Below are positions 1 through 22,300 of a stretch of DNA of 23,175 bases, piece by piece. Location of the stretch: contig JBNKUM010000018.1 in assembly GCA_050298595.1 (NCBI GenBank), positions 1 through 23,175 on the forward strand. Direction: 5' to 3'. Both the position numbers and the translations under genes were made by a program. Within the stretch, counting starts at the first letter, position 1; every line of letters begins with the position of its first letter. Source of the stretch: Gammaproteobacteria bacterium. GTDB taxonomy: Bacteria > Pseudomonadota > Gammaproteobacteria > GCA-001735895. The notes below the pieces were generated by a model. That model did not search any database, was not told the origin of the DNA, and saw only the letters and a list, made by a program, of their open reading frames with translations.

Positions 1-63
1 GTTGAGCTTTCATCTCTCCCCGTTAAACATTTCAACGGTCGTGCTCTTTGAAGCATATATGAC

Positions 64-144
64 GCTCAACAACGTCATCAACTCGGACGTGCAAAAGAGC
101 CGCTTCGCTATACTTTTGCACGCCGGTTACGGTAAACGTTATAA
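64..144 (+). other. attC site 1
   Basis: R'' GCTCAAC 64-70, inner palindrome CGTGCAAAAG...CTTTTGCACG, R' GTTATAA 138-144. Confidence 0.9.
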
Positions 145-430
145 CTAAAAAGAAAATTGGTCAGGTTGTTTCTTAAAAACAATCACAGGTTTTGAAATAT
201 CGGTTTCAAAACAAACAGTCAAAAGCATGCGGGTATAATCATTAACTGGCGAGCTTTGAACCAGAACGGTCTCGGTAACAAAAAAGCATTTGAGTCTCGG
301 TAACCGTTAAAGAGAAAAGGCTTACGAAACTAAGTTCTTGCTTTTATTCGAGTAGAGCGGTAGTTTTCATAAATCGAAAAAAACAAAACCTACCCGCTTC
401 AAGGGTCTGAGGCAACATGCACATTAGCGG
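145..430. other. Body of an ORF-less (non-coding) cassette
   Basis: Bounded by matching GTTATAA (138) and TTATAAC (431). No ORF of 60 aa or more in the track. Contains hairpins and a direct repeat. Confidence 0.75.
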
Positions 431-520
431 TTATAACAAGTGGCTTAAAACGGACTCGCGGCACCAGGGTTCCGCTCACGTTACCAAAGGCGGCGCGAGC
501 CGCTTAGCCAAGCGTTAAGT
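431..520 (+). other. attC site 2
   Basis: R'' TTATAAC 431-437, pairings TGGCTTAA/TTAGCCA and CTCGCG/CGCGAG, R' GTTAAGT 514-520. Confidence 0.9.
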
Positions 521-530
521 GTAAAAGACT

Positions 531-1226
531 ATGAAACATGACCTTAAGACATATGGAATATTGTTAGGCATTTTTTTATTGTCATTGATTGGCATGTTAG
601 TAACTGACGATAGTGATGATTTATTGCAGGCAGTAGTAGCTTCTCCAGGAGTTGTTGCATTGCTTTCTGCTCTATTCCAATTGCTCAGGGATCAAGCAGC
701 TTATGAAAAGCAACTGGACATACAGAACAAACAATTCAAATTCACGCTTGGGGCTGCATCACATATGGCTAACACGGCCTTTGATAAGCATGTTCGGTTT
801 TGTGAGCTTTATGTGACTGAAATCCACGAAGCGTTTTTAACGATATTTCGAGAAGGCTCCACTCCAAAGGCATTAGAACATGCTGGGAGGCTTTTTCAAT
901 TACGCTTGGATCATGCAGTGTGGTTAACTAGTAAAATAAATTCAGATCTTGAGGTTTTTGAGAGTGGGTTAAGAAAGCTTGGAGCTGGTTCTGAGTTTGT
1001 TCGTTCAACACATGGAAGTACTGATTATGCGGAACAACGCCAAAAATTCATAAGTAGCAACCACAAGCTTTTTATCGAGATACTGGGTATTGACGAAAAA
1101 AAAGAAATAAATGAAAAGTATGCAGTTGAGGCGGCTAAGAAAAAAGTGAGGTCGATTTTGGGCGTTGAAGAACTTACAAATTTGCGAGAACACCTGATTT
1201 CCGAAGCTATGAAAGCAATTTCATGA
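531..1226 (+). CDS. Cassette-encoded hypothetical protein with two N-terminal hydrophobic segments
   Basis: 231-aa ORF filling the cassette, ATG 10 nt after R'. Hydrophobic stretches YGILLGIFLLSLIGMLV and AVVASPGVVALLSALFQLL. Confidence 0.85.
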   Translation: MKHDLKTYGILLGIFLLSLIGMLVTDDSDDLLQAVVASPGVVALLSALFQLLRDQAAYEKQLDIQNKQFKFTLGAASHMANTAFDKHVRFCELYVTEIHEAFLTIFREGSTPKALEHAGRLFQLRLDHAVWLTSKINSDLEVFESGLRKLGAGSEFVRSTHGSTDYAEQRQKFISSNHKLFIEILGIDEKKEINEKYAVEAAKKKVRSILGVEELTNLREHLISEAMKAIS

Positions 1227-1232
1227 AAACAC

Positions 1233-1293
1233 ACTTAACAAATGCCTTCAGCGGAACTCGCTGTCGCTCATCCGCTGAGGCGAGGCGTTAGAC
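1233..1293 (+). other. attC site 3 (short, 59-base-element-like)
   Basis: ACTTAAC 1233-1239, GCCTTCAGCGGA...TCCGCTGAGGC, GTTAGAC 1287-1293. Confidence 0.92.
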
Positions 1294-1309
1294 TTCAGTC
1301 GAAAATATT

Positions 1310-2137
1310 ATGCACCCAAACACTTACCTTAGATCTTTTTGGCAGCCAAAGACAAAAAATCAAGTTTTTGTAGCTATGAGTTTTGAGCAACGCTTTACAG
1401 AGCGGTTTGATAATATTATTAAACCGGCTATAGAGAATGAATTGATTGCTGGAGTTCAATTATCGGCTTTCAAAGTAGATAATTCTCAAACTGGCGATTC
1501 AATATTAACTGATATAGCTGATGGTATAGTTCACTCTGCATTATTTCTAGCAGATGTATCAGTAATAGATGAAGGTCGTTACGCGGAACAACCGATTAGA
1601 AATGGTAACGTTATGTATGAGGTGGGCTTAGCGCTAGCAAGCCGTCAACCTTCTGAGGTATTACTAATTAGAGATGATGCTAAGAAATTTTTATTTGATG
1701 TAAGTACAATACCTCATATTACAATCGATTTTACTGATCATGATACTGCGGCTAAAACAATTAGACTCGCATTATCTGATCGTATTACTGAAACGAATAA
1801 AATATACGATGCAAGGGTTTCAATCGCAATGAAAGGGTTGACTCCGCTAGAACTACAAGTTTTAGAATCACTAACATTGCTTCAGCCTGGCGTGGCCCGA
1901 GACTTTTCATTAAAAGACTCAGGACAATTGAGCATTCCTCTTGAAAGAGCAATTTCTTCGTTGCTAATTAAAGGTTGTATCGAGTCAGTTGCTAAAAATG
2001 AAAAAACTAACGGATTGTTTTACTGTATGACTATATTTGGCGCTAATGTCGCTAATGCAGGGAAATCCCTACTTCCGAAGGTAAAGCCAGACAACCAAGA
2101 AGGACAAAGTGAAAGTGAAGATCAGTCTAACAATTAA
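1310..2137 (+). CDS. Nucleoside 2-deoxyribosyltransferase/TIR-like Rossmann-domain protein with a possible C-terminal winged helix
   Basis: Motifs QVFVAMSF, IKPAIE, FLADVS, NGNVMYEVGLALA and LLIR are typical of NDT-like/TIR-like domains. The stop codon lies inside attC4. Confidence 0.7.
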   Translation: MHPNTYLRSFWQPKTKNQVFVAMSFEQRFTERFDNIIKPAIENELIAGVQLSAFKVDNSQTGDSILTDIADGIVHSALFLADVSVIDEGRYAEQPIRNGNVMYEVGLALASRQPSEVLLIRDDAKKFLFDVSTIPHITIDFTDHDTAAKTIRLALSDRITETNKIYDARVSIAMKGLTPLELQVLESLTLLQPGVARDFSLKDSGQLSIPLERAISSLLIKGCIESVAKNEKTNGLFYCMTIFGANVANAGKSLLPKVKPDNQEGQSESEDQSNN

Positions 2138-2228
2138 AATTCACACGGAAACAGCAAAATTGGCACGCCATTTTGCTGTCGCAAAAGCCGCGACCAATTT
2201 CACTGTTCCGGTGATTTAGACGTTAGCC
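2125..2228 (+). other. attC site 4
   Basis: GTCTAAC 2125-2131, CGGAAACAG...CTGTTCCG and AAATTGG/CCAATTT pairings, GTTAGCC 2222-2228. Confidence 0.9.
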
Positions 2229-2250
2229 TAAAATCTAGACACTATTTATA

Positions 2251-3315
2251 ATGAATCAAGAATTTGAAAGCGTAAGCAATCAACAAACGAATATTAATGT
2301 TCGTGATTTTCAATCGCCAGGTGAGGTTGAGTGGGACTTGCCTTCTTGGAATCATCCTTTGGCGCAAGGCATTATGCCGCTTTGTGCAATCGTTAACCAA
2401 CATTTAATCCCTATTGGCACTGCTGTTATTATTAGTAAACTTGGTGTAATTGCCACTGCAGCTCATGTAATTTCGGAAGCACTACGTAATGACCCCACAG
2501 TTCATAAAGAGGTATTGAAAGGAAATTGTGAAAAAGAACATCAAGTAAAGCATGTACAACTTGCAGTTTTGCATCATAGGATGATTAGCAGTGAAACCAC
2601 TCAATTTAATATTTGGCCATTAGAAAATGTTCAAATTGCCCACCCAACCGATCTTGCTTTTGGTTTTTTAAAAGTCCAACAATCGTTTCAATACATGTCT
2701 TTCACTCTTAGTCCTGCAGCTCCTCGAATAGGAGAAACCGTTTTTTCTCTTGGTTACTGTGACAATCAATTTCCCGAGGATGGCATTCCTTTACAAGAAA
2801 TTAAGAATAGCACCTTCAATTGGAATGAAAATTTTTCACATCTCTTCCATGTCTCTGAAGGAAAAGTTAAGGCTTTATTTGTTCGTCGTTTTGCACAAGG
2901 TTATGCAGATGGGCCATGTTTTCTAATGGACTCAAATGTAAGACATGGTCAAAGCGGTGGACCTGTGTTTAATTCCTACGGCAACATATGTGGTATAAAT
3001 CTTGGCGGTGCATCAGTTATAACCAATGAACAAAATAGTTTGGCCTCATTAATATATCCAGCTCTGACCATTAAACTCAGTTTTACTTTACAACTTGCCA
3101 AACAATTTACCTTTAACGCTCAAAGTCCTCTGATCAGTCTTGTCTCAAGCGGTGGGATAAAAACAGATGGAAGCGAGAGGCTTACAAATATTTCAGGGGA
3201 AGATGATAAATTTCGAATTTCTCCATTAATTCATCGAGATGACAAAATAAATACTTTTGATGATTTTCACGGCTATCAGGATTCAAAGCCATCTGTTCCT
3301 GTGCAGGCTAAATAA
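2251..3315 (+). CDS. Trypsin-like (S1) serine protease, no obvious signal peptide
   Basis: Catalytic motifs TAAHV (His), PTDLA (Asp) and GQSGGPV (Ser). Confidence 0.88.
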   Translation: MNQEFESVSNQQTNINVRDFQSPGEVEWDLPSWNHPLAQGIMPLCAIVNQHLIPIGTAVIISKLGVIATAAHVISEALRNDPTVHKEVLKGNCEKEHQVKHVQLAVLHHRMISSETTQFNIWPLENVQIAHPTDLAFGFLKVQQSFQYMSFTLSPAAPRIGETVFSLGYCDNQFPEDGIPLQEIKNSTFNWNENFSHLFHVSEGKVKALFVRRFAQGYADGPCFLMDSNVRHGQSGGPVFNSYGNICGINLGGASVITNEQNSLASLIYPALTIKLSFTLQLAKQFTFNAQSPLISLVSSGGIKTDGSERLTNISGEDDKFRISPLIHRDDKINTFDDFHGYQDSKPSVPVQAK

Positions 3316-3324
3316 TGACAGCAA

Positions 3325-4136
3325 GGCTAATCGGGTAACTGGGGGTCTCTAACCCCCAGTCCCCACAACACCCTGCATGCGGGTCCGCACAGGGCGTTTC
3401 CCAAAAATGTTTAAAGCAAGCTGGCCGATTAGCTCCGACTTACCCCAATGCTGGCTTCTGTTTTTGCGCCAATGCCCCTAAGCCCGGTCGGGTACGGAGA
3501 ATTGAGCTGCACAGGCTCCTCACTGATCTTCAGGTTCAGGCCTTCACCATGTCCCAGCCATTACACTGGGCGTTGGGCTACTATGCCGTCTGCTGACTTC
3601 TGCTTAATCACCCTCAGAGTTACCCCTGCTGGCGCTATCGGTTTCCATCTCGTTCGCTCAGACCGGTCGATGATTCCGGCGTGCCTGGACTTTTGATCAA
3701 CCAGTAGCCCTTTCTGGTATTTTACCGATCGCCCCGTTAAGCAGATCTCCCCGAATAAGAACATTAACTTTCTCTGCACAACTGCATCATTTACGGTGGC
3801 CGTTAAATCACATGGCTTCGTCGTCTTGTGCCAACTCGCCTCCAGCCTACGCCTCATATGATGTTCTTGTTCATCAGCTCGCAGTTTTGCTAGCGGCTTC
3901 CTTCAGACCTTTCCTCACGGATCGGCCCTTGCCATTCGCTAGTAGTTATCATCTAATAACCATCAGGTTAAAGATGGTGATCTTCCTACAGAGGACTTTC
4001 ACCTCATTAGTTAATGCCCATGTCGGGCGTACACAAGAGCAATCGAGAGGGACAAACCTCCGCGGAGCGAATTTTTGTGCTTGAATAGCACAAAAATCAC
4101 GCCACTACGGTTTGCCCCTCATTGCTGACGTTATTC
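3325..4136 (+). other. attC site 5, interrupted in its R'' box by the intron (parts 3325-3329 and 4033-4136)
   Basis: Joining GGCTA (3325-3329) to ACAAGAG (from 4033) restores GGCTAAC, complementary to GTTAGCC at 2222. Palindrome ATTTTTGTGCT/AGCACAAAAAT. R' GTTATTC 4130-4136. Confidence 0.92.
3330..4032 (-). mobile_element. Group IIC-attC intron lacking an intron-encoded RT/maturase ORF
   Basis: On the minus strand: 5' end GTACGCCCGACATGGGC; DIII-type GAAGTCAGCAGA...GAAGGCCTGAAC (~3534-3600); DV GAAACGCCCTGTGCGGACCCGCATGCAGGGTGTTGTGGGG (3361-3400) with CGC triad; DVI ACTGGGGGTTAGAGACCCCCAGTTACCCGAT. Inserted at TTGT/TA of the attC bottom strand. Confidence 0.93.
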
Positions 4137-4152
4137 CTCTTAAGGAGAAATT

Positions 4153-4725
4153 ATGGATATAAATTTCAAGCTTAAGGAATTAGATGGTTCTGATATTCCT
4201 GAAGATAAAGTGGACTTACTTAAAGCTTCTCTTAATATCAATGACGACTCACAACTACAGCCAATATTAAATAATTTAGCTCAGGCTAGTCTTGCTGACT
4301 ATATTGAAATGCTAGTTGGCAAAGGAATGCCCAACCGGGCAGATGAGTCAAAACAAGATAGGCTGCTTTATCTTATAAAAAAGGTTTATTCTCCAAGGCT
4401 TCCTGGAGAAGACGAGATATCGATGATGTTTCAACTAACTAGCACACAGTCTAAAACTCTACTAAGAAACACCCTTTCAAGGTATAGAACAAAACTGAGT
4501 AGCGAGTTGAATGAGACATTAGAAAATATATTCCGTTCTGCTATACATAACAAGGAAGGCTGGGAGGTTACTATAAGTTCTGAAATTTTTGTGGAGCAAT
4601 TGAATTTGATAGTGGCTAAAGAGGGGCCCGAATACAATCCTGTAAAAAAACGCTCTGTTGGAACAAGAAAATATTTTATTGCCGCCGATACCCATACAGC
4701 ATTAGGAAATCATTTTGGAAACTAA
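4153..4725 (+). CDS. Hypothetical protein, gene 1 of a two-gene cassette (possible HTH segment)
   Basis: 190 aa, strong RBS TAAGGAG. The segment LPGEDEISMMFQLTSTQSKTLLR looks helix-turn-helix-like (inference). Confidence 0.8.
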   Translation: MDINFKLKELDGSDIPEDKVDLLKASLNINDDSQLQPILNNLAQASLADYIEMLVGKGMPNRADESKQDRLLYLIKKVYSPRLPGEDEISMMFQLTSTQSKTLLRNTLSRYRTKLSSELNETLENIFRSAIHNKEGWEVTISSEIFVEQLNLIVAKEGPEYNPVKKRSVGTRKYFIAADTHTALGNHFGN

Positions 4726-5113
4726 TGTCGCAAATTCGATATCTGCTCTAAGTGTAGTGTTTGGTGTTGCTGTATTTCACTTGGGGGCTTCATCAGAAGT
4801 TATAAAATCAACCTTAAATATAGAAAACCCGTCTAAGACTCTAGAAAAAGCCAGAGAACAACTTAGGGGGGATATTGTCAGGGTAATTACCGTAAATAGC
4901 TTGCCAAACCTCGTAATGCTTTTAGCAATAGCGTTTGTCATGTTGCCCCAGTTTGTAAAGCATATTTCCCATTACAAACTAGAATTATGGGATTTCGATT
5001 TTATGATAACCCTCTATCAGATAATTGGTGTGATTGTATTCTTTTATTTACTAATGTCCGCAAAAAACACAATATTTCTTTTAGGTAAATGGTGTCGGTT
5101 AAAATGGGCATAA
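4715..5113 (+). CDS. Membrane protein with about 3 hydrophobic helices, gene 2 of the two-gene cassette
   Basis: TTG start after AGGA, 11-nt overlap with the upstream gene, stop TAA inside the R'' box of attC6. Confidence 0.75.
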   Translation: METNVANSISALSVVFGVAVFHLGASSEVIKSTLNIENPSKTLEKAREQLRGDIVRVITVNSLPNLVMLLAIAFVMLPQFVKHISHYKLELWDFDFMITLYQIIGVIVFFYLLMSAKNTIFLLGKWCRLKWA

Positions 5114-5216
5114 CAATCGCGTTGAGTCGGACATACCTCCGCGGTGCTAATTTTGTGCTTAAAAATAGCACAAAATTAGCACCACTACGGAATGCCGCTC
5201 ACGCAGGGCGTTAAAA
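5108..5216 (+). other. attC site 6 (last of the array)
   Basis: GCATAAC 5108-5114, palindrome GGTGCTAATTTTGTGCT/AGCACAAAATTAGCACC, GTTAAAA 5210-5216. No further attC seen downstream. Confidence 0.92.
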
Positions 5217-5321: not shown

Positions 5322-5813
5322 TTATTTTCGTTTAGCTCTTCGAAATTCCCAGGGAGCAACAGCCGATTCAGACCATAACCCAAGTCGGCTCCGCCTAGCT
5401 CGAACCTCAGAAGAGCTATATAGTTTCCTATCCTCAACTGACTGCTCTTTCTCATATTGCTTATAGTGCCAGGCAAGGCCATCCTTTATCTGTTGCAGGT
5501 TGATATCTCTCCCATTCAAAACAAGCTTCCCTATAATACGTCCATAACGATCACGCTTATCATATTCAACTTCGACGCTCTTACCTGCAACATACCCGGC
5601 AAGATTCTCACTCGACCTTTTACCGAAAGCTTGCTTTTTTTCTGGTGCATCTATACCAGCCAGTCTTATCTTGTGCCTCACACTTTTTTGATCAAGGACA
5701 TGGACTGTATCCCCGTCTGTCACTTTCACAACTTTACACGGACATTGAAGCCAATCTGAAAATGCCTGAGTTGAAAAAATTAGTAACAGGCAGCTTAATA
5801 TAGAAGCCCTCAT
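5322..5813 (-). CDS. Secreted thermonuclease (staphylococcal nuclease family)
   Basis: Motifs VTDGDTV, IRLAGIDAPE, DRYGR and GLW. Signal peptide MRASILSCLLLIFSTQAFS from ATG 5813, which overlaps the HNH stop (ATGA). Confidence 0.92.
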   Translation of the reverse strand: MRASILSCLLLIFSTQAFSDWLQCPCKVVKVTDGDTVHVLDQKSVRHKIRLAGIDAPEKKQAFGKRSSENLAGYVAGKSVEVEYDKRDRYGRIIGKLVLNGRDINLQQIKDGLAWHYKQYEKEQSVEDRKLYSSSEVRARRSRLGLWSESAVAPWEFRRAKRK

Positions 5814-6225
5814 AAAATTCGAGCCTTCAACTCTTCGATAGATAACCACGGTTTCGACCTATGGATCATTCTATGACAGTTAGCGCACACGATAGCAAAA
5901 TCCCTCAATTTCGTTTTCTCGCCCGGCACTAAAGACGAGACCGCCTTTGTATGATGACACTCAGCAAAACCCTGACCCAAATCTCCATATACCTCTTGAA
6001 AATCAAAACCACAGGCTTCACATTCAAGCTTACCTGTGTCATTAAGCGCCTCTGTTTTTTTCTTTTTGACAATTCTCTGATTACGCTCTCTGGCCTGATG
6101 AACACGGGTTAACACCCGGCCTTCTGAGGCTTCCATATCTTCGATTTCAGACGCTTGGATTTACCCCTTAGCTGAGTCGCCTGAATTTGCTTTAATAGCA
6201 TCATCGACCGTATGCAACCGCTCAC
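5810..6225 (-). pseudogene. McrA-like HNH endonuclease, 5'-truncated with an in-frame stop (open part 5810-6136)
   Basis: CEACGFDF...ECHH...CANCHRMIH. The frame continues upstream as RERLHTVDDAIKANSGDSAKG*IQASEIED, with TAA at ~6160-6162. Confidence 0.75.
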
Positions 6226-9359: not shown

Positions 9360-11987
9360 ATGCTGTTAAAAAATAAATCTATCATATTTATGGGCCGGGC
9401 AGGTTTGCTCGGATTGACCAGTCTAATGCTTGCAGCCTATTCGGGAGTTTCAGTATCCGATTCAGGCAACGACAAAACTAAGAGTAGTCGAGATGGCCGC
9501 AAAAGCTCATCTTTCAGTATTAAAGAAGCGAAATGGGACAGCAAAAGAAATCGTATCACTGTTACAGGCAAGGGTGATGACGGGCGACGGGTAACCGTCT
9601 ATAGCGTGGCATCAAATACGCTAATCGGAAGGGATAGAGTAGATAATGACGAATGGAGAATTAGAGAGTCAGACCTGGACAGTATTCCCTGTCGAGTAAG
9701 AGCCGAACAGGAAAATGGTAAGTCAGAAGAAAAGGATGTTAAAAATGCTCCTTCAAACTGTGATGATACCGTCGTTTCTGATAACGATCATTCACATGAT
9801 GACCATTCTGATGACGACCATTCTGATAACGACCATTCTGATAACGATCATTCTGATGATGGTGGAAATACTGGTGATGGTGGAAATACTGGTAACGGCG
9901 GAAATACCGGAAATTATACTGTCTTAGCTGCCAATGATCTGGGTATGCATTGTGCTGATCAGGATTATCGTATCTTCAGTATTCTTCCTCCTTACAACGT
10001 TATCAATGCTCAGGTATTGCAGAAAGGTGGTGAGCCAAAATTGATGTCACCAGTGGATGGTATTCATGTTACCTATAAGGCAGTAGATTCAAATTACTTC
10101 ACTGATTTTAACGATGCAAATCGAGCGCCGGATGCTACCGATTCAGTCACAACAACTTCATTGAATACTCTGAATTACTATAAGAGCAATTTCTGGGATG
10201 TCACGGAACCCTCTGCTACAGGCATCGATAAAATCGGATTTCAGGCCTACGAGCCTTTGTATCCGCCTGAAGTCCTGTCGACATTTCCATCGACTCCTGA
10301 CTTAGGATTGCCGGCGCCCGATCTTGCCGAGTTACACCTGCTGGGTGGTACTCTACAGGCTGAACAGGCTGCTATGCCTGGTGCTTCCAATACACCTCAG
10401 GAATTCCACGGTTATGTTGAAAATTTGCCATTCTTCAGCAGTTTTCCTTTTGGCACAGTAGTGAATAACTTCAATCGATACACCGCTGAAGGTGTGCCTA
10501 TCACGCCAGTGGATGATAAGGGCCGTTCCAATCCGTACCCATTACTCAGAATAGAAGCAAGAGATGCAGCGGACAATGTTCTGGCGTCAGTGGATACGGT
10601 AGTGCCAGTGGCTGCTGAAGCGAATTGCGCAATCTGTCATGCGAGCCAGGAAGTGTGCGATGTTGATACTTTACAAGGCCTGGCGTGTAATGAAATTGCT
10701 AACACAAATTATCCGGAAGAGATTTTCGTGAATACAGCGTCACAGGCTGAAGCGGTAATAGGTGCAACTCCAGAGCAAAAGGTCATCAATAGTGCGAAGA
10801 TAAATATCTTACGTTTACATGATCAAAAACATGGTACCACCCTCGCAGGAACTGAAACAGATGGGTCGAATGGAGCAACAACACCGAATATAGTTTGCGC
10901 CAACTGCCATTATTCTCCAGCGCTGGATCTGGCCCATTTAGGTCCTAATGATGCGAATGGTAAAGAGCAAACCCAGCACATCACTATGTCGCGTGCAATG
11001 CACGGTGTACATGGCTCGTTGCCGCAGAGTAGTGATCCCCTGTATAAAGATTTATTTCCAATTATGCCACCTCCAGGGCCCAGTCGGGACCCGGTTGTCA
11101 CTGAAGAAATACTGATGAATACCTGTTACAACTGTCATCCAGGCAAAAAAGCGAAATGCCTGCGTGGAGCGATGGGTGGCTCAGGAACCGTGTGTCAGGA
11201 TTGCCATGGTCAGTTAACCCAGGTGGGTGATGACTTTAGCGAAGGATTCCCAGATAAGGGATTTCCAGCAGGTGCTGATTTGACGAAACGTGTGCCATGG
11301 GGTTCAGAGCCTTCCTGTGATAGCTGTCATGTAGGTGATGTGATGCAGGTAGCCCAGTTAAAGCAAACCGGCATGCTGGCAGACACAGTAGTCAATGTTA
11401 ATGATGCACTGAATAATGCTGACGGTTTACGCCTGTTGATGACATACAAGTTATCTAACCATAAGTCCAACAATGGTCCAGATAATCTGCCGATCATGAA
11501 GTTCCCTGAGTCTCGTTTTGCAACCACAGAAGCTCTATATCGTTTAAGTGGTGCAGATAACAGTACCGATGGTGGTCTGAAGAAGGGTCATGGCGGTTTG
11601 AGTTGTGAAGGTTGTCATGGTAGTACACATGCTATCTGGCCCAATAAAAACCCCTATTCAAACGATAACAAGGCTGCAAATGATATTCAGGGTCATACGG
11701 GTCCGATCATTGAATGCAGTAGCTGTCATGAGGGCAATCTCGGGAATACTCTGGAAGGGCCACATGGTATGCACCCAGTCGGAAATACCTCATTCTCCGA
11801 TGGAGGTCATGAAAATATCGCAGAAAACAATGGCGATGCCTGCCGAACCTGTCATGGAATGAATGGTGAAGGTTCAGTGTTATCCAGAGCTGCTGCCGAC
11901 CGTAACCTGAGTAATGAAGGTAAAACGGTGAATGTGGCAAAAGGAGAGGTTATTACCTGTAGTCTTTGCCATAAAAATAAGCTGTAA
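9360..11987 (+). CDS. Exported multiheme cytochrome c (9 CxxCH) with a His/Asp-rich linker
   Basis: CAICH, CANCH, CYNCH, CQDCH, CDSCH, CEGCH, CSSCH, CRTCH, CSLCH. Signal-like N-terminus, LAANDLGMHC motif, RBS GAGG. Confidence 0.92.
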   Translation: MLLKNKSIIFMGRAGLLGLTSLMLAAYSGVSVSDSGNDKTKSSRDGRKSSSFSIKEAKWDSKRNRITVTGKGDDGRRVTVYSVASNTLIGRDRVDNDEWRIRESDLDSIPCRVRAEQENGKSEEKDVKNAPSNCDDTVVSDNDHSHDDHSDDDHSDNDHSDNDHSDDGGNTGDGGNTGNGGNTGNYTVLAANDLGMHCADQDYRIFSILPPYNVINAQVLQKGGEPKLMSPVDGIHVTYKAVDSNYFTDFNDANRAPDATDSVTTTSLNTLNYYKSNFWDVTEPSATGIDKIGFQAYEPLYPPEVLSTFPSTPDLGLPAPDLAELHLLGGTLQAEQAAMPGASNTPQEFHGYVENLPFFSSFPFGTVVNNFNRYTAEGVPITPVDDKGRSNPYPLLRIEARDAADNVLASVDTVVPVAAEANCAICHASQEVCDVDTLQGLACNEIANTNYPEEIFVNTASQAEAVIGATPEQKVINSAKINILRLHDQKHGTTLAGTETDGSNGATTPNIVCANCHYSPALDLAHLGPNDANGKEQTQHITMSRAMHGVHGSLPQSSDPLYKDLFPIMPPPGPSRDPVVTEEILMNTCYNCHPGKKAKCLRGAMGGSGTVCQDCHGQLTQVGDDFSEGFPDKGFPAGADLTKRVPWGSEPSCDSCHVGDVMQVAQLKQTGMLADTVVNVNDALNNADGLRLLMTYKLSNHKSNNGPDNLPIMKFPESRFATTEALYRLSGADNSTDGGLKKGHGGLSCEGCHGSTHAIWPNKNPYSNDNKAANDIQGHTGPIIECSSCHEGNLGNTLEGPHGMHPVGNTSFSDGGHENIAENNGDACRTCHGMNGEGSVLSRAAADRNLSNEGKTVNVAKGEVITCSLCHKNKL
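9777..9914 (+). repeat. In-frame tandem repeats: 15-nt (DHSDD/N) and 18-nt (GGNTGD/N) units
   Basis: About 5 GACCATTCTGAT(G/A)AC-like units, then 3 GGTGGAAATACTGGTGAT-like units. Confidence 0.9.
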
Positions 11988-12919: not shown

Positions 12920-13288
12920 ATGGACATCAAACCCATTAAAACTGATGCCGACTACCGAGCGGCATTGAAAGAAGTTGAAAACCTGATGATAGCTACACCT
13001 GATACACCAGAGGGAGAAAAGCTGGATGTGATGGTTACGCTTATTGAGGCCTACGAAGCAAAACATTTCCCAATGGAACTGCCTGACCCTGTTGAGGCAA
13101 TCAAATTCGAGATGGAACGCAAAGGCTTAACAGTGAAAGATTTAGAACCCATGATAGGCAAAAGCAATCGTGTTTATGAGATTCTAAATCACAAACGTAC
13201 TCTTACCCTGAAAATGATCTGGAAACTTCACGAAGGACTGGGTATTCCAGCCGAGTCTTTGATTAAGCCACCGCAACTCCAGGCTTAA
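12920..13288 (+). CDS. higA: HigA-family antitoxin (HTH transcriptional regulator)
   Basis: MDIKPIKTDADYRAAL...LIEAYE...PDPVEAIKFEME...NRVYEILN...GLGIPAESLI. RBS GGAGG. Confidence 0.92.
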   Translation: MDIKPIKTDADYRAALKEVENLMIATPDTPEGEKLDVMVTLIEAYEAKHFPMELPDPVEAIKFEMERKGLTVKDLEPMIGKSNRVYEILNHKRTLTLKMIWKLHEGLGIPAESLIKPPQLQA

Positions 13289-13302
13289 ATAACGACAGGA
13301 CT

Positions 13303-15738
13303 TTGGTTTTGGACCGCTTCGCCTCTGGAACAAAAAGCATCGTGGATAATGTGGATGAGAGCAAACCCTGCGAAGATACGTTTCATGATATTTCTGCCAT
13401 TGATGCTCGGCTAGTTGAACTCGAACAAGAAAAACAGAATCTAATTGCACTCAAAGACGAGCTGCAGAAATCGAAGCGAACGTCTCCTGTCTCCGACTCT
13501 TTAACACCAGAACAAAAAATCTCTATTTTCAGAAACTTGTTTCGTGGCCGTACAGATATCTTTGCTAATCGTTGGCAAAACAAGCAAGGTCGAAGTGGCT
13601 ACTCGGTTGCTTGCAACAATGAATGGGGTAAGGGGATCTGCCACAAACCTAGAGTTAAATGTACCGATTGCAAACACCGACAATTTAGTGATCTGAACGA
13701 CAAAACTATTTATAACCATCTCGCTGGCCAACAGGTTGTGGGGCTTTATCCTTTGCTGCATGACAATACCTGCTACTTTCTTGCCGCCGACTTTGATAAG
13801 ACAGGCTGGCAAGAAGAAGTCAAGGCAATGTCCCGAGCCTGCAGCAATTACGACATCCCCCATACGATTGAAATATCCCGATCTGGAAACGGTGCGCATC
13901 TTTGGTTATTTTTTGACCAAAAGGTGCAGGCAAAGGACGCTCGATTATTGGGTTTCGGACTTCTCGACAAAGCAATGGAGATATACCCAAACCTGTCTTT
14001 TGATTCCTATGACAGGTTATTTCCCAACCAGGATATTCTGCCTGAGGGCGGGTTCGGCAATTTAATAGCGCTACCACTGCAACGTGAAGCAAGACTATCT
14101 GGCAATAGTTCGTTTGTAGACGCTAACTTGAACGTCATCCAGGATCAATGGCAGCATCTGGCTCAGATGAAAACAATAACCGCTCAGGACCTGGTTCATC
14201 TACTCACAAAAGTTTCACCCCGCTCCAATCTCTTTACTGAACAAGAGGTCGTTGAAACTAGACCACCCTGGGAGATTACGTCTAAGTCTAAACCTTTGAT
14301 ATTGGACAATCCGCCACAAAAGGTAACGATAACTCTAGCTAACCATATATATTTCAACCTTAGTGAACTGCCTACCACTCTTGCCGCTAGATTAAGGCGA
14401 TTAGCCAGCTTTTCGAATCCTCTTTTCTTCAAAACTCAGGCACTTCGCTTTTCAACTCATGGCATCCCACGATTTATTTCATGTGCTCAAATTGAGCAAG
14501 GCTATCTGGCCATACCGCGTGGTTGTCTGGACGATGCTCTTTCGTTATTGAGAGAGAACCGTATAGCTGTCGAAATTGATGACAAGCGAGAGTCAGGAAT
14601 GAAACTTAAAGGATTGAAATCGTTGGTGAAGCTACGGAAAAACCAACAATCAGCTGTAAGAGCAATGAGCATACACGATGCAGGAATACTTCACGCACCC
14701 ACTGCATTCGGTAAAACAGTTACCGCTATCGGTCTTATAGTTAAACGAAAAACAAACACTCTAATACTGGTACATAGCCGCCAGTTGCTTGACCAATGGC
14801 AGGAAAGGCTTCACTCCTTTTTACCCGAAACCGAAGTGGGTGTTATCCGAGGCGGAAAGAAAAAGCCCAGCGGTGTTATCGATATTGCAACTTACCAAAG
14901 TTTGCTCAACAAGAAAGACAATACTGTATCGGAAATTATTCAAGATTACGGGCATGTCATAGTAGATGAATGTCATCATGTATCAGCACCGCGTTTCGAA
15001 ATGGTATTAAATGAAGTCAGAGCCAAATACATACTTGGCCTTACTGCCACTCCAGAAAGACAAGATGGTCACCAGAAAATCATCTTCATGGCTGCTGGCC
15101 CTATCCGTCATAAAGTAAAAAACACGCACCAGGACAAATTTACTCAAGAAGTCAAAGTACATCAGTTATATGATGCGCCACCAATACTACTACGCCAATC
15201 TGATGAACGCCCCAAGATTTCAGATGCATACCGCTGGATCATGGAAAACGAAGATCGAACTCAGCGACTCGTTCGGGATGTGGTGAAAAGCATCGAACAA
15301 ACCAAACACCCTATTGTCTTGACCGAAAGACGTGAGCATGCAGAGGCGATCAACTCCATTCTTCTTGAACAGGATATCGACTCCGTCGTTTTGAAAGGTG
15401 CAATGGGGGCAGCCGAGCGTAAAAAAGTTGAAAAGTCTCTTCCTACAGCACAGGTGGTTGTTGCTACAGGAAAATATATTGGTGAAGGTTTTGATTTGCC
15501 CAGGTTGGATACCCTGTTTCTAGCAATGCCAATTGCCTGGAAGGGATCGCTCGCACAATACGCAGGCCGTATTCATCGAGAGTCAGATGGCAAAGACTGT
15601 GTCACTATTCACGACTACGTTGACTGCTCACTCCCCATGCTTCAGCGTATGTTCAATAAACGAGAAAAGGGATATAAAGCTATGGGCTACAAAATTGAGT
15701 ATACAGATCAGTTAACTACTTATCCTCCAAGCCCCTAA
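13303..15738 (+). CDS. AEP primase-like domain fused to an SF2 (DEAD/DEAH, ResIII-like) helicase; TOTE-conflict-system-like architecture
   Basis: AEP-type motifs AADFD, SRSGNGAHLW, GNLIALP. Helicase motifs APTAFGKT, DECHH, LTATP, GEGFDLP, QYAGRIHR. Start codon uncertain. Confidence 0.82.
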   Translation: MVLDRFASGTKSIVDNVDESKPCEDTFHDISAIDARLVELEQEKQNLIALKDELQKSKRTSPVSDSLTPEQKISIFRNLFRGRTDIFANRWQNKQGRSGYSVACNNEWGKGICHKPRVKCTDCKHRQFSDLNDKTIYNHLAGQQVVGLYPLLHDNTCYFLAADFDKTGWQEEVKAMSRACSNYDIPHTIEISRSGNGAHLWLFFDQKVQAKDARLLGFGLLDKAMEIYPNLSFDSYDRLFPNQDILPEGGFGNLIALPLQREARLSGNSSFVDANLNVIQDQWQHLAQMKTITAQDLVHLLTKVSPRSNLFTEQEVVETRPPWEITSKSKPLILDNPPQKVTITLANHIYFNLSELPTTLAARLRRLASFSNPLFFKTQALRFSTHGIPRFISCAQIEQGYLAIPRGCLDDALSLLRENRIAVEIDDKRESGMKLKGLKSLVKLRKNQQSAVRAMSIHDAGILHAPTAFGKTVTAIGLIVKRKTNTLILVHSRQLLDQWQERLHSFLPETEVGVIRGGKKKPSGVIDIATYQSLLNKKDNTVSEIIQDYGHVIVDECHHVSAPRFEMVLNEVRAKYILGLTATPERQDGHQKIIFMAAGPIRHKVKNTHQDKFTQEVKVHQLYDAPPILLRQSDERPKISDAYRWIMENEDRTQRLVRDVVKSIEQTKHPIVLTERREHAEAINSILLEQDIDSVVLKGAMGAAERKKVEKSLPTAQVVVATGKYIGEGFDLPRLDTLFLAMPIAWKGSLAQYAGRIHRESDGKDCVTIHDYVDCSLPMLQRMFNKREKGYKAMGYKIEYTDQLTTYPPSP

Positions 15739-16398: not shown

Positions 16399-19300
16399 TT
16401 AGCCCTGGGGTTTATTACCCCTATTTCTCCCCATCGTAATTTTGTTGCGAGTCATCCATACTTGATTTCCAATCGATAAAGTCAACAGCATCATCATACT
16501 GAGTAACAACTGGATGTCTATGGCTCCGCCTCCACCGCCGCTGCCTGAGCTGCCTGATGTCGCAGGTGTAGTTGGTGTGGGTGTAGTTGGTGCTTTAGCC
16601 ACCGCTACACCACCAGGATCTGTGATGACACCATTTCTGAGTAGATCACTATCATTTGGACCTCCATCTTCAATCAGCATCTGTATGCAGTATTCGCCAG
16701 GTTCTAAGCCGGGTAGATAATCACTGGACCCAGGTGATGGACAGACCCCATCGGCTCCTGGAGCTGATGACAGTTCATTCGCTGCATCTTCTACAAAGTT
16801 CGACCAGCCTGTATCAGGGCTGTATTTCCGATAAGCCGCCTGATCAGGAATGGGCGATAACAATGGGATGACCAGCTTGACTGATTGCCCGTGTGTTGTT
16901 AGCCCGTTGATGGTGAAATCCAGATATCCATCATCTGCGGTGAAGTCACTATCATTAGGATCTAATGCATCAGTAACTCGTCCTAAATTAGCAAACTGTG
17001 CCAATTCAGCCGGTGTTAAATTAGCAGCGTATTTTTCACTGAGCTGAGCAATTTTTCCCAGACGTAAGCTCAGGCCTGATTGTGTAGCGAGAACCGACTT
17101 GTTTGATTGACCCACCTGCATTTGCAGTAGCTCAGGTTGCCCATCAATAGCATCGAGATAGTTTGGTACTCCATCGTTATCGTCGTCATAGTCTCCTTCC
17201 AGAGCATCTTCTATACCATCATGATCGGAGTCTGTTCCTGCGGGTGGATTAAAATCCTGCGTTTTAATGCGTAGGTAGATTTCATTCTCAGCTTTAAGAG
17301 CACCGCTATCGACGACTTTGATACCTATTCTGTAGTTGCCATCAAGCAGGTTACTGGGATCAATCTCAAACGTGTTAACTGAACCTGTAGCAGGAACTGA
17401 AAGATTATTGTCTGTTGTTGACCAATCCAGACTATGTGTATCGCCCTGATTAGTATCATGGATATTAGCCGTAACTGTAACCGGCCCATCATTGGTATGC
17501 AGGTTTTTGGTCGGCTTACCATTCTGTGTCACTTCGATATCAACTATAGGTGCAACATTAGTGTCAATCAGTGTAATCGTATGAGTATCATCAAATCCAA
17601 CGACAGCATTCTGTACACTGACCAGGCTGAATGTAATGGTATCTGTAGTAACTAGATTTGGTGGTAGTTGATAATCAATAACACCAGATTTGGCACCTGA
17701 TATCGTTACCACATCACTGCCCGCGATGATTCCATTAATACTCCAGTTATAGTCAATAGTGACAGGGTACTCTGGAGCTAATCCATTCATAGTCAATGCG
17801 ATCTGAACCGAAGCCTGCCCGATTTCAGCCTGTTGATCAAGCTGGAAATTCACCATTGGTAGCACATCCACCGTCTGAGTAGCTGTAACCGTGTTATTAC
17901 CACTGTCAGTAACACTCCAGGTGATTACATGACGGCCTGTGGTAAAGGGGCCGGTGTTATCGGCAGTTGGTTGTAGAGCGCCATCTTCAGGGTCAGTGGC
18001 TGTCGCAACACCCAGATTGACAGGAGTCAAATAACCCGTTGAATCCACACTGATATCTGCAGGTACTGTGATAGTTGGTGCAACGTCTACAGGTTCCTGA
18101 GCAGTTATGACGACGGTATCTGCAGTACTCTTTACGTTACCATCATCAACAATCAGTTGTGAAGTATAAACACCCGCTACATCAGCAGTGAACTGAGAGG
18201 TTACCGAAGTCGCCTGAGTTAATGCTGCTGCACTGCCAGTGGGTACAGTCAGCGCCCATTGGTAAGTCATATTATCTCCGTTAGCATCACTGGATAGAGC
18301 TCCATCCAGAATGACAGAGTCACCAACAACTACTGTCCTGTCAGTACCTGCATTGGCTACAGGTGCGTTGTTAACCACTGTGATGGTTACTCTGCTGGCA
18401 AGACTTCTTGAATTGTTACTATCGGTTACGATCAGTTGAGCTTCATAGACACCAGACTTGTCCGGGTTAAAAGATGCAATTTGCATAGTTGCCTGAACTA
18501 CATCTATCTCACTCACACTGCCCTGCGGTTTAGAGACCAGAGTCCACTGGTAGGTAATTACGTCCCCATCAGGATCACTGGAAGCACTGCCATTAAGTGT
18601 CGCAGGGCTTCCGGCAGATACTGTTTGTGGGCTACCTGCATTCGCTATAGGAGCATGATTGACAGTGGCATCTATCACTGTGACGTTAAAGCTACCGACA
18701 GTCGTGTTATTTGCTCCATCAGTTGCACTACAGTTCACGATTGTTGCGCCTAATACGAAATTGCTACCACTGACTGGTGAACAATTAGGCACGATAGGTC
18801 CATCAACAGCATCAGTTGCGGAAGCGGTAAAGCTAACGATAGCACCTGTTGATGCAGTGCTTTTAACACTGATATCCGCAGGTAGTGTTAAAGCTGGCCC
18901 AGTGGTATCGACCACTGTTACGCTGAAGCTGCCTGATGTGGTCTGATTAGAGCTGTCGGTTGCACTACAGTTTACAATGGTATCTCCCAGTGCAAAAGTA
19001 GTCCCAGACAAAGGTGTGCAAGAAGCTGTTAAGGCACCATCCACTACATCACTGGCGGTTACAGTGTAACTCACTAATACACCACTTGCTGATGTTGCTT
19101 CTGCTGTGATATTGGCTGGCAAGCTTAATGTTGGTGAACCGATGTCGGTAATGGTAACGATTTGAGTTGCGCTTCCAGTATTATTCGCGTTATCTGTAGC
19201 TGACCAGTTTATGGTATGAACACCGACGACAAAGGGGCCAGTGTTATCAGCCGTTGCTGGTAATACGCCGCTTACAATATCAGTTGCAGTTGCAGTGCCC

Positions 19301-22300
19301 AGCGCTACCACGGTAGTCGTACCAGAAGCTTCCATTGAAATATTGGCCGGTGCGGTAACCGTGGGTGCCTGAGTATCTACAATAGTGACGTTGAAGCTAC
19401 CTGTTGTGGTTAGTTTCGCAGCATCTGTGACACTACAGCTCACAGCGGTGATACCTAAGGCAAAGGTACTGCCCGATACCGGTAAACAGCTGGCAGTCAT
19501 AGCGCCATCAACGATATCGTTTGCTGAAACGCTATAGTTGACTACAGCGCCTGCTGCTGAGGTAGCTTCCTGAGTGATACCTGTAGGCATAGATAACACC
19601 GGTGCTGTTGAGTCCGTAATAGTTACTGTTTGTATCGCTGTACCAGTGTTATTGGCAGCGTCTGTTGCACTCCAGGTTATGGTATGCACACCTACGGTAA
19701 ATGGGCCGCTGTTACTGGCAACTGGAGTCAGGGTGCCGCTCACCAGGTCACTGGCTGTAGCAATACCCAGAGTAACTGGCGTAGTGGCTCCAGTAGCTTC
19801 CACATTGACATTGGCTGGAGCTGTAACATCCGGTGTAGTGGTATCCACTACTGAAACGATAAAACTGCCATTCGATGTGTTTCCTTGCAGATCCTGTGCA
19901 CTACAGTTAACGACATGATCTCCCAGGGCAAATGTACTGCCCGAAGCTGGTAAGCAGCTCGCTGCTAGTGGACCATCAATGACATCACTTGCTGTAGCTG
20001 AGTAGGTCACTATGGCACCGGTAGATGCGGTGGCTTCGGTCGAAATATTAGCCGGTAAGCTTAACGTGGGTGCCCCGGTATCGGTAATGGTGACGTTAAA
20101 GCTTCCTGTCGTTGAATTATTAGAGCTATCACTTGCACTACAGTTGACCGCAGTTGTGCCCAGCGTAAAGGTACTACCTGATACAGGAGCACAACTGGCC
20201 GCGACGATACCCTCAGCTATATCGTTTGCTGTAACAGTATAGTTAACCACTGCGCCGGTTGTTGAAGTTGCCCCCTGACTGATATTTGCAGGTAAGTTTA
20301 AGGTTGGCGCTGCTGTATCTGTGATAGTAACGATCTGAGTAGCAGTACCCGTATTATTAGCTAAATCAGTAGCACTCCAGGTAATAGTATGAACACCTAC
20401 GGCAAAGGGGCCTGTATTATTAGCTGATGGAGTTAAAGTGCCACTCACGACATCACTGGCACTTGCACTACCAAGGGTCACAGCGGTGGTTGCCCCCGTA
20501 GCTTCCATGGTGATATTCAAAGGTGCTGTCACAACTGGTGCTGTGGTATCGACAACATTGACAGTAAAACTACCTGAAGCTGAATTACCTGCTGTGTCAT
20601 TCACACTGCAATTTACTGTAGTTAATACCAGACCAAAGTTCACGCCACTGGCCGGTGTACAGACTCCAGTAATTGAGCCATCAACCGTATCTGTTCCCGT
20701 TACTGAGTAACTTACAATGGCGCCAGTGGGACCCGTGGCCTCTACTGTCATATTCGCGGGTAAACTTATTGAAGGTGCTGAAGTGTCAATTATTGTGACA
20801 GTTTGAGTGGCACTGCCAATATTCCCGGCACTATCTATGGCGCTCCAGATGATGGTATGCACTCCAACAGAAAAAGGACCCGTATTATTCGGTAAAGGAG
20901 TTAGTGTCCCACTCACTAGATCACTCGCGGCAGCTACATTACCACTATCCAGAGTCACAGCGGTAGTTACAGCTGTTGCCTCACGGACAATTGCAGGGGG
21001 TGCAGTTACAACAGGCGCGGTAGTATCACTTACCAAAACAGTGAAACTACCTGTGGTAGTCAGGTTGCTGCTATTGGTGACACTACAATTTACCGTAGTT
21101 GTCCCAAGAGCAAAGTTACTGCCACTGGCTGGAGAACATCCCGATGGAAGGTCGCCATCAGTAACGTCGGTGGCACTTGATGTATAGTTTACAGTAGCAC
21201 CCGAAGCAGAAGTCGCCTCTGCTGTGATGTTGCCCGGTAAGTTTAACGTCGGCGGAGGTTGTGTAACCGTTAACTGGAAGTTCAATACAGTGCTTAATCC
21301 TGGATATCCATTGTCTGTAATAGTGATAGTTACTGGGTAAGTTCCAGTCGCATCTACAGGTGAAAACCATCGTATTCTGATACTGCCATCATTTTCAAAT
21401 AAACGTGGGTTCGTAGTACTCGCGATGGGTATTCCAGTGAAGGTAGTACTTATAGCGTCGCCATCAGGGTCACTAACTGGAATAGTAATATCGAATACAC
21501 CTCCAGCCTCTATGGTTTGATCAGTAACAGCGGCTATCACCGGTGCCTGATTCGCATCAGCCGCATTGCGAGAGACCAGATAAAAATCATCTCCAAAAAT
21601 GAATAGCGGTTGTCCAGTTTTACCGTCGATGTCACGGAACTGGAAACTGTTAAAACCCGCAGTATTGATAACACCGTAGAACTGGTGAGCTGGTGTCACC
21701 AGCTTGCCGATATTGTTGGGTACCCCGCCGTCAGTAATAATTTCGATATTGGCAGCACTATTGCTACCCTTAATATAACCGCCTGCAGCATATAGCAAAG
21801 TCGTGCTCGTACCACTGACCCCATCGTAGGGCAAACATTCTGGAGGAACGACACCATTATTCGCTGTTTCAAGAGCCTGGCATTCTCCTGTTGAGGTATT
21901 AGTTGCATAGCCGTGATCTGGATCAAAAATCCCATAGGTACCTGTATAAGCGCTGCCTGTTGAAGTAGAAATAAAGTTGGTGGCAGGATGGTTTGAGGAC
22001 CAGTCAATTCCCTTGCTAGTGATAGTTGTTGCCTGATTATATATCCAGTTAAAATTTGCATCCTGGTAAGACCTGTAATTGTTCCATGCTGCCCCTTCAA
22101 AGCCTTCGTGCTTAACATAGTAAGGATTTTGTGGATCTTCAGTTGCAGCCAGTGCATCGAAAAAAGAGCCTTCAGTCCAACATATAGTTTCTGTGCCTGT
22201 GGTTGAACAGGCTTTGAGAAAGACCGTAGTTTCGGCAAATTCATAAGTGCCTAATCCAACATCCACTTCGAGCTTATAGGTGAAACTATCAACACCACTG

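Follow-up and report, generated by a model that had tools for sequence, protein, structure and literature searches.

A group IIC-attC intron without a reverse transcriptase gene in a gammaproteobacterial cassette array: a candidate non-autonomous retroelement

How does a group II intron that encodes no protein come to sit exactly inside an integron recombination site, and could such an intron still be a mobile element? The question is raised by a 23,175-nucleotide (nt) stretch of DNA from a Gammaproteobacteria bacterium (contig JBNKUM010000018.1, assembly GCA_050298595.1; hereafter the window, numbered on its forward strand), in which an attC site is split by 703 nt. A first-pass annotation, made from the letters alone, had taken this segment for a minus-strand group II intron lacking an open reading frame (ORF), and had proposed that it is either mobilised in trans by the reverse transcriptase (RT) of another intron or a copy that lost its ORF in place. 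Our analysis confirmed that the element is a structurally complete group IIC-attC intron without an RT gene. It also points to an ORF-less IIC-attC lineage that is, with a probability that we put at roughly 0.7, a non-autonomous retroelement borrowing its RT from full-length relatives.

The Rfam search gave three matches above the gathering score, all on the minus strand within 3330-4032 and in the right order: RF02001 (part of domain I, DI) at 3760-3924 with 137 bits (E 1.3e-28), RF01998 (the DII-DIII region) at 3539-3634 with 62.9 bits, and RF00029 (DV-DVI) at 3330-3399 with 48.2 bits against a gathering score of 40. Direct reading of the ends gives GUACG on the 5' side and CCCGAT on the 3' side (last letters GAU); the group II consensus is GUGYG at the 5' end and AY at the 3' end. 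The matches and the ends bear out the boundaries first proposed, and the folding, which had been suggested together with the Rfam scan as a check, shows all six domains in the consensus fold of the aligned copies (Table 1; intron nt = 4033 - window coordinate). The loop AACAAGAA, singled out from the start as exon-binding site 1 (EBS1), forms six of six pairs in the window copy with the exon end TCTTGT (4033-4038), and DVI holds an unpaired A at nt 697 (window 3336), 6 nt ahead of the intron 3' end. Among 466 alignment columns conserved at 90% or more, the window copy deviates in 13, none of which lies in DV, in the junction between DII and DIII (J2/3) or at the ends, and several of the 13 fall in one DII branch that the sister copy L068 has in common with it. 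The gap between DIII and DV, estimated at first at about 130 nt and judged too small for an RT, is indeed occupied by a DIV of some 135-140 nt, which leaves no room for one: the three ORFs overlapping the intron (82, 98 and 90 amino acids, aa) match no Pfam family at E ≤ 0.1, and no ORF of conserved length was found across the 18 aligned intron copies.

Excision of the intron joins GGCTA (3325-3329) to AC (4033-4034), giving GGCTAAC, whose partner box GTTATTC lies at 4130-4136. The exact restoration of the attC R'' box that had been noted at first is visible in the joined sequence and also in its fold, the restored bottom strand forming a single long imperfect hairpin (-30.3 kcal/mol) closed by TAAC/GTTA. 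The intron lies antisense to the cassettes, in the bottom-strand context ...TCTTGT/TAGCC. Group IIC-attC introns are described as inserting at TTGT/T in the attC bottom strand (R''), opposite to cassette transcription (PMC7923331), and since both the site and the orientation match this description, we assign the window intron to the group IIC-attC type.

An RT-bearing relative, L026 in genome G023, is 1921 nt long and stands at ...TTTGT/GTACG...CCCGAT/TAGC; its protein of 437 aa has RVT_1 and GIIM domains only. The RNA is 85% identical to the window intron over nt 1-524 and 94% over nt 633-703. In between, the window copy and the loci L028 and L030 have a short DIV that opens with CTGAAGATCAGTGAGGAG, an 18-nt signature borne by the 5' strand of the basal stem of DIV. 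It is a derived feature; RT-bearing copies differ at that place. Exact pattern scans for this 18-mer over public genome contigs and metagenomes placed it in homologous intron DNA at 13 of 37 genome-contig loci and 37 of 77 metagenome loci, the others being chance 18-mers; the 13 genome records are labelled Gammaproteobacteria, Motiliproteus, Thiotrichaceae or Shewanella. Nineteen full-length ORF-less rows, representing 17 distinct copies, were obtained, with a DIV of 139-154 nt in 19/19 as against 1361-1406 nt in 4/4 RT-bearing relatives, and their stubs are mutually alignable. The copies occupy many independent sites: all flanks differ, the 5' flank ends in TTGT in 15 and the 3' flank starts with T in all of the 16 distinct copies that have one, and family-wide only TTGT is kept. 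When the restored sites of relatives were folded by minimum free energy, the TAAC/GTTA closing pair was clear in 11 of 21, a result that does not mark the other ten as non-attC sites.

The origin of the stub can be followed from one end. Over 92 nt from its 5' end it aligns colinearly with the opening 100 nt of DIV in the RT-bearing L026 and L076, a stretch in which the ribosome-binding site and start codon used to lie (60-63 identical positions; score 11-18 against about -10 to -12 in shuffles, with a standard deviation of about 4.7). These values come from end-wise alignments, which were used instead of a global alignment of the stub with the whole L026 DIV, as the latter gave scattered short blocks and was uninformative. 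Photobacterium profundum SS9 has one more ORF-less copy, unannotated and 81.8% identical, on its conjugative plasmid pPBPR1. The 18-mer is altered in the stub of this copy, and scans for the exact pattern therefore miss part of the family. A 231-nt query made of the stub and DV-DVI was run against 400 genomes sampled evenly from the window's class (at most two candidates scored per genome, G288 left unscored). It matched 24 of them, including the unpublished G080 and G182, and the match extends across the stub in two only, the window's own genome (G000) and G148. The ORF-less lineage is, on this sample, widespread but sparse.

Selection on the RNA was assessed in alignment A1, which comprises the window copy and 17 others that are 71-89% identical to it. 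RNAalifold gave 193 pairs, 45 of them with at least one compensatory double change, and pairing is kept in 97.5% of the cells against 93.3% in shuffles. The 45 double-change pairs compare with 22.4 ± 2.7 in shuffled alignments (0 of 500 reach 45) and with 5-16 in slid controls. Shuffle tests are inflated by kinship among the rows, and the fold was itself derived from the alignment under test, so that the slid controls make the fairer yardstick; their values, too, are far below the observed one. Covarying pairs occur in DV (3), in DVI (5), in a GNRA-capped hairpin of DII (8 of its 10 pairs) and in the stub helices 28 and 31 (6 pairs). On this comparative evidence, the RNA structure is one that remained under selection after the ORF had been lost.

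Evidence of movement comes from a Shewanella sp. genome (G063, reached via locus L084), which holds five ORF-less copies, at 1.69, 2.80, 2.81, 2.83 and 3.01 Mb, each in a different attC-like flank ending CTTGT at the insertion point. Along their full 702 nt, four of these (S1-S4) show 99.7-100% identity, S4 having a 25-nt insert, and the fifth (S5) is 96.6-96.9% identical to them. The same genome carries two intact RT-bearing introns of the family, with frames of 456 and 458 aa and RTs 70-71% identical to that of L026, one of them 476 nt from an ORF-less copy; the ratio of ORF-less to RT-bearing introns is 5:2. This pattern fits the Thermosynechococcus precedent (PMC2882425), and in this way supports mobilisation in trans. 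For the family, the first suggestion of such mobilisation is thus well supported, by the distinct TTGT/T sites, the covariation and the Shewanella copies beside intact RTs; for the window copy itself it is a conjecture.

The ribozyme cores and the stubs tell different histories. In a tree of the cores (DI-DIII plus DV-DVI, with the long-branch rows L125 and L127 left out), the four RT-bearing introns do not group but nest among ORF-less copies; forcing the four together costs 201 log-likelihood units (approximately unbiased, AU, test, p ~1e-43), a constraint group chosen after the first tree had been seen. Shewanella ORF-less cores are 94.8-97.5% identical to the cores of Shewanella RT-bearing introns and 83% to that of the window, and the two Shewanella RT-bearing cores, 3% apart from each other, are 2.5-5% from the ORF-less copies. 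The stubs of the Shewanella copies show homology to every other stub but do not resemble the DIV of the RT-bearing introns from Shewanella. Because core similarity is local and stub similarity family-wide, the stub has a single origin and the cores are swapped with those of local full-length introns. We read this as recombination that keeps the ORF-less element matched to the local RT, the mechanism being deduced from the pattern.

The window's own genome is a draft of 119 contigs, 98.6% complete. The best relatives of the L026 RT in it are a 48% match on contig C75, broken by a TGA in frame and a small insert, and an intact 42% match on C13; neither of the two introns gives a BLAST match to the 703-nt intron. 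Decayed intron pieces lie on C56, C74, C103, C85 and C108. C56 also has a second site, where a 172-nt 5' fragment 99% identical to the window intron is cut off by an unrelated repeat, so that near-identical ORF-less copies accompanied by an RT relative, which the first-pass annotation had named as support for trans-mobility, were found in other genomes and only partly here. The interrupting repeat (C56:1-67) ends its contig and recurs on C20, C91, C102, C76, C99 and C61; no ORF of 120 aa or more was found in the part of C20 examined, and it is probably an insertion sequence or another dispersed repeat. On C74 (12670-13066, L003) lies a mini derivative of about 397 nt in which DI is fused directly to the 3' half of DV, with small inserts; its joint 3389->3777 recurs in contigs of three public runs. 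As no cognate RT was found in this genome, the window copy, though intact, is most likely stranded at present and probably an orphan.

Two further observations concern these intron pieces. A separate DV-DVI match on C74 (13630-14650, L012; RF00029, 45.6 bits) adjoins an IS200-like Y1 transposase of 263 aa (PF01797) on the opposite strand. Small inserts resembling hairpins, about 25-55 nt long, are found repeatedly within intron copies (C74, C75 in two places and C56 of this genome; L103, L155, L088, L104 and L084) and also in the RT ORF of L076, in two places; some share a DI position across different introns, and they look like small repeat elements favouring intron DNA.

Around the intron, the window begins within a cassette array in which an attC-like palindrome stands behind each plus-strand ORF. 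Located by structure and motif, at least five such sites besides the invaded one lie in window 1-5216 (about 64-140, about 440-520, 1233-1293, 2125-2228 and 5108-5216); a similarity search with the restored attC returned only itself and no further attC. No integrase gene is present on the contig, which the window spans entirely; elsewhere in the genome, integron integrases are encoded intact on C89 and C75 and in broken form on C99. In the region C75:87838-92203, the integrase (374 bits to TIGR02249) stands 1.5 kb from the RT-bearing intron with the in-frame TGA. With R'' now 703 nt away from the rest of the invaded attC, folding of the recombination hairpin should be hindered. DI of the intron also holds a promoter-like site, TTGCCA-17-TCTAAT, which points to the next cassette ORF, 196 nt upstream of the ATG at 4153. 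In Table 3 of PMC3001079, several IIC-attC introns have a P1out with these hexamers and this spacing, and some P1out sites are active in Escherichia coli (PMC3001079), so that this feature of the IIC-attC lineage is present in the window DI as a predicted site. The complement of its -35 hexamer falls in invariant columns of A1. A simple sigma-70 promoter/terminator scan of 3250-4250 called no promoter; it missed this site as the -10 hexamer has C at position 2, where the scan demands A.

Table 1. Coordinates of the intron, its domains and its surroundings in the window
Feature	Position	Strand	Basis or remark
ORF-less group IIC-attC intron, 703 nt	3330..4032	-	Rfam RF02001/RF01998/RF00029; GTACG...CCCGAT ends common to 17 other copies
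5' end GUACG	4028..4032	-	direct reading; near-invariant in alignment A1
Domain I, intron nt 6-283	3750..4027	-	RF02001 match, consensus fold, column map
EBS1 loop AACAAGAA	3864..3871, inside hairpin 3859-3876	-	consensus-fold helix 11; pairs with exon TCTTGT
Domain II, extended, nt 288-434	3599..3745	-	consensus-fold helices 16-20
J2/3 and domain III, nt 435-496	3537..3598	-	RF01998 match
Domain IV stub, no ORF, nt 499-633	3400..3534	-	starts with 18-nt signature CTGAAGATCAGTGAGGAG; covariation in helices 28, 31
Domain V, nt 635-666	3367..3398	-	RF00029; zero deviation from family consensus
Domain VI	3333..3364	-	consensus-fold helix 34, 5 covarying pairs
Intron-binding site 1 (IBS1), TCTTGT	4033-4038	-	
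Left part of attC R'' (GGCTA)	3325..3329	+	3329 is the first 3'-exon base on the intron strand (IBS3 position)
Rest of split attC: AC of R'', L boxes, R'	4033..4136	+	R' GTTATTC at 4130-4136
Outward-facing promoter-like site TTGCCA-17-TCTAAT in DI	3929..3957	+	1 match against 0/100 shuffles
Upstream cassette ORF, Trypsin_2 domain	2251..3315	+	its attC is the invaded one
Downstream cassette ORF	4153..4725	+	no Pfam family

Just beyond the final attC site, ORFs with SNase and HNH domains overlap on the opposite strand (5322-6136, minus). They are followed by a multihaem cytochrome of 875 aa that has cytochrome c7 and MtrC/MtrF-like domains (9360-11987, plus), by a small helix-turn-helix protein and an 811-aa protein that combines an AEP-TOTE primase domain (330 bits) with a ResIII/DEAD helicase, the two forming a TOTE-type conflict-system gene pair (12920-15738, plus), and by a surface protein of 2073 aa bearing HYR and PKD repeats (16399-22620, minus).

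Taking these observations together, we propose the following course of events. An RT-bearing IIC-attC intron would have lost nearly its whole ORF once, leaving a compact folded stub with the 5' part of DIV, the region that holds the main protein-binding site in other group II introns. The stripped RNA would still fold as a ribozyme and, where it is transcribed in a cell expressing the RT/maturase of a related full-length intron, could be spliced with the help of that protein. Reverse splicing into the single-stranded attC bottom strand at TTGT/T would follow, and the borrowed RT would make the DNA copy. Occasional recombination may place the stub onto the core of a resident full-length intron, and cassettes and plasmids would ferry copies from host to host. 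A fuller version of this proposal, which we hold tentatively and rate as somewhat short of an even bet, pictures a SINE-like (short interspersed nuclear element) lineage of protein-free introns in the attC sites of several gammaproteobacterial genera, carrying one DIV module on cores taken from resident autonomous introns, recognisable to the local RT, spread by cassettes and conjugative plasmids, and surviving as intact 'seeds' in genomes that hold no driver.

Several results weigh against the use of a borrowed RT. Searched with the L026 RT, the window's genome yielded no RT of the same family, and in a survey of six genomes with a full-length ORF-less copy (G000 and G061-G065) none was found in three (G000, G061 and G062) and a fragment only in G064, though the metagenome-assembled genomes among them may be incomplete; G065 has many same-family RT copies, at least some of them broken, and G063 is the Shewanella genome described above. 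On contig C118 of genome G011, two derivatives (L032:1501-2062 and L042:1501-2051) lack most of DI-DIII; what remains is some 136 nt of DI, the final third of the RT ORF, and DV with DVI. The two have an internal junction in common and 529 of 551 positions identical (96%), and stand in unrelated attC flanks 4.3 kb apart, from which it follows that variants can reach several sites without an intact ribozyme; this suggests gene conversion or another DNA-level copying route. The core/stub mosaic likewise shows recombination at the level of DNA or complementary DNA at work on these elements. As the last 48 nt of the stub have no similarity to the ORF 3' end detectable by end-wise alignment, an origin by one simple deletion is only half documented. 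Finally, splicing and mobility were not observed: the sole RNA run examined (X15) held contigs 90-97% like parts of the intron, which hence come from relatives and give no evidence of transcription at this locus.

These points bear on the view that the ORF-less form is an immobile relic, which reaches attC sites by gene conversion, the stub taking the place of the ORF in a resident full-length intron, and new hosts by integrase-mediated cassette movement and plasmids. We regard it as unlikely, although it would account for the likeness of ORF-less cores to local RT-bearing introns combined with a stub of single origin, for the rejection by the AU test of a split of the cores into ORF-less and RT-bearing, for the ribozyme-dead derivatives with one junction at two G011 sites, for the copy on a conjugative plasmid and for the RT not being found in half of the genomes checked. 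However, the near-identity of S1-S4 includes their cores, which one ORF-less master fits better than separate conversions, and ORF-less copies outnumber RT-bearing ones in that genome; moreover, the compensatory changes in DV, DVI and the stub need ongoing RNA selection, and an inert relic would feel none. A promoter takes about 30 nt, not 700, and covariation from DII to DVI would go unexplained if the intron were kept as a host-useful regulatory insert, for its outward P1out and/or for locking cassettes by splitting attC, with the ribozyme incidental. The position of the promoter-like site ahead of the downstream ATG, its identity in hexamers and spacing with P1out and its invariant -35 complement all speak for such a role, but the sigma-70 scan did not call the site and an outward promoter is compatible with the borrowed-RT explanation as a side effect, so that we consider the regulatory reading improbable.

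Two further explanations were weighed. A private deletion of a formerly full-length intron at this locus could be imagined given how common deletion derivatives are in the genome (the C74 mini derivative, the C56 fragments), and loss in place was one of the two alternatives first offered; it did not survive the comparison, as the stub with its signature recurs at the homologous genome-contig and metagenome loci and is common to 18 aligned full-length copies at other sites and in other genomes. Loss in place at the window locus is thereby refuted, and we leave it a very slim probability. That the assembly dropped the ORF from a collapsed or chimeric contig is suggested by the 119-contig draft and by a summed depth in the intron of 5-20x that of the flanks, an excess that we attribute to the many relatives in the samples. 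When contigs of three public DNA runs containing the stretch were aligned to the window, run X1 supplied a 2903-nt contig over 2900-3390 and a 4324-nt contig over 4008-4500, entering from both sides, and between them a 435-nt unitig over 3391-3825, all three with 0 differences. The unitig spans DV, the entire stub, DIII, DII and part of DI at a depth of 24.4, close to the flank depths of 22.1 and 29.1, and the ORF-less architecture is for this reason not an assembly collapse, the outcome that the first-pass annotation had named as fatal to its proposal. No contig connects 3329 to 4033, and no single listed piece covers the whole intron. With the identical architecture present in unrelated records, complete replicons included, an artefact is scarcely credible. 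In runs X2 and X4, joints run from 3400-3402 to 3533-3534 with unknown letters between, and these may come from an unassembled same-family RT-bearing intron in the window's genome or its community.

We return to a lineage that borrows its RT, and to what it would mean. An ORF-less, attC-targeting lineage occurs in several named genera, on a plasmid and in metagenomes, down to about 71% identity with the fold kept, and also where no driver was detected. If the RT is indeed borrowed, the lineage would be a bacterial counterpart of the parasitism of SINEs on long interspersed nuclear elements, with a parasite that is itself a catalyst; it would offer small natural ribozymes of about 700 nt that target attC hairpins, for mechanistic work; and it would add a layer to integron biology, by splitting attC and introducing an outward promoter-like site. 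Since RT-bearing kin are common in class 1 integrons on clinical plasmids, whether ORF-less copies can be driven there is a practical question.

Those RT-bearing kin are, judged by their sequences, probably known IIC-attC introns. The 703-nt query matched 375 plasmid records, with nt 1-520 about 83% identical in the best-ranked ones, and the L026 RT is 83% identical to plasmid ltrA genes; IEPs of the IIC-attC clade, the intron-encoded proteins, are characterised by RT and X domains and the lack of an endonuclease domain. On a Klebsiella pneumoniae plasmid (NZ_CP132695.1, 147318-150643; L214), a class 1 integron carries, beside intI1 and flanked by dfrA1 and qacEdelta1, two RT-bearing introns of the family in tandem, whose ltrA proteins are identical. 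Another plasmid match (H2) consists of three pieces beside an ltrA gene. IIC-attC introns with an intron-encoded protein (IEP), of the S.ma.I2 type or the ltrA introns of class 1 integrons, share with the window family the TTGT/T target, the antisense orientation and the P1out hexamers; the window family differs in its DIV of about 140 nt, against about 1.36-1.4 kb, and in the derived 18-nt signature.

That bacterial group II introns can lack an ORF and be mobilised in trans is already known. Such introns are reported to stand nearly always beside a closely related IEP, and non-mobile derivatives to be short-lived (PMC4424553, PMC3245105). A 2022 survey counted ORF-less introns in bulk, with attC unmentioned in the passages cited here (PMC8919778), and a full-text literature search returned no paper on ORF-less attC-targeting introns; an earlier catalogue entry, for example of the pPBPR1 copy, is possible. 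The ORF-less intron C.te.I1 of Clostridium tetani is independent, in a genome without a related IEP (PMC4424553). The window copy resembles it in having neither an ORF nor a related IEP found in its genome; C.te.I1 differs in being a single splicing element resident in a gene, whereas the window family is multi-copy with RT-bearing kin elsewhere. In Trichodesmium, ORF-less introns of dnaN are spliced by the RT of the RIR intron (PMC12584367), and the window family is predicted to be served in a like manner by the protein of a related ORF-carrying intron. The Trichodesmium introns, however, sit in a housekeeping gene whose splicing the host cannot do without, while the window intron lies antisense in a non-coding recombination site, so that host need for splicing cannot explain its conservation.

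The nearest precedent is Thermosynechococcus elongatus, whose ORF-less TeI3 introns were shown experimentally to be mobilised in trans by TeI4 IEPs (PMC2882425). The window family resembles TeI3 in its common deletion breakpoints (a stub architecture shared by 19/19 copies), its N-terminal ORF remnant, its several distinct target sites, its ORF-less copies outnumbering ORF-bearing ones and a probable dependence on a related IEP; a related IEP intron in the same genome, as TeI3 has, is present in the Shewanella genome G063 and was not found in the search of G000. TeI3/TeI4-type introns are classed as IIB1 (PMC8643678), with long EBS/IBS pairings, and are found in one genome only, whereas the window family targets attC hairpins and, with identities of 71-89%, occurs in several named genera of Gammaproteobacteria, on a plasmid and on many metagenome contigs. 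Its ribozyme cores also appear to track local partners, and its mobility is deduced from comparison, where that of TeI3 was established by experiment. By analogy, and with no claim of membership, the lineage recalls miniature inverted-repeat transposable elements and SINEs, being short and protein-free, outnumbering its autonomous partner in one genome at least, and apparently relying on that partner's enzyme; unlike them, an element of the window type must itself be a ribozyme in order to insert.

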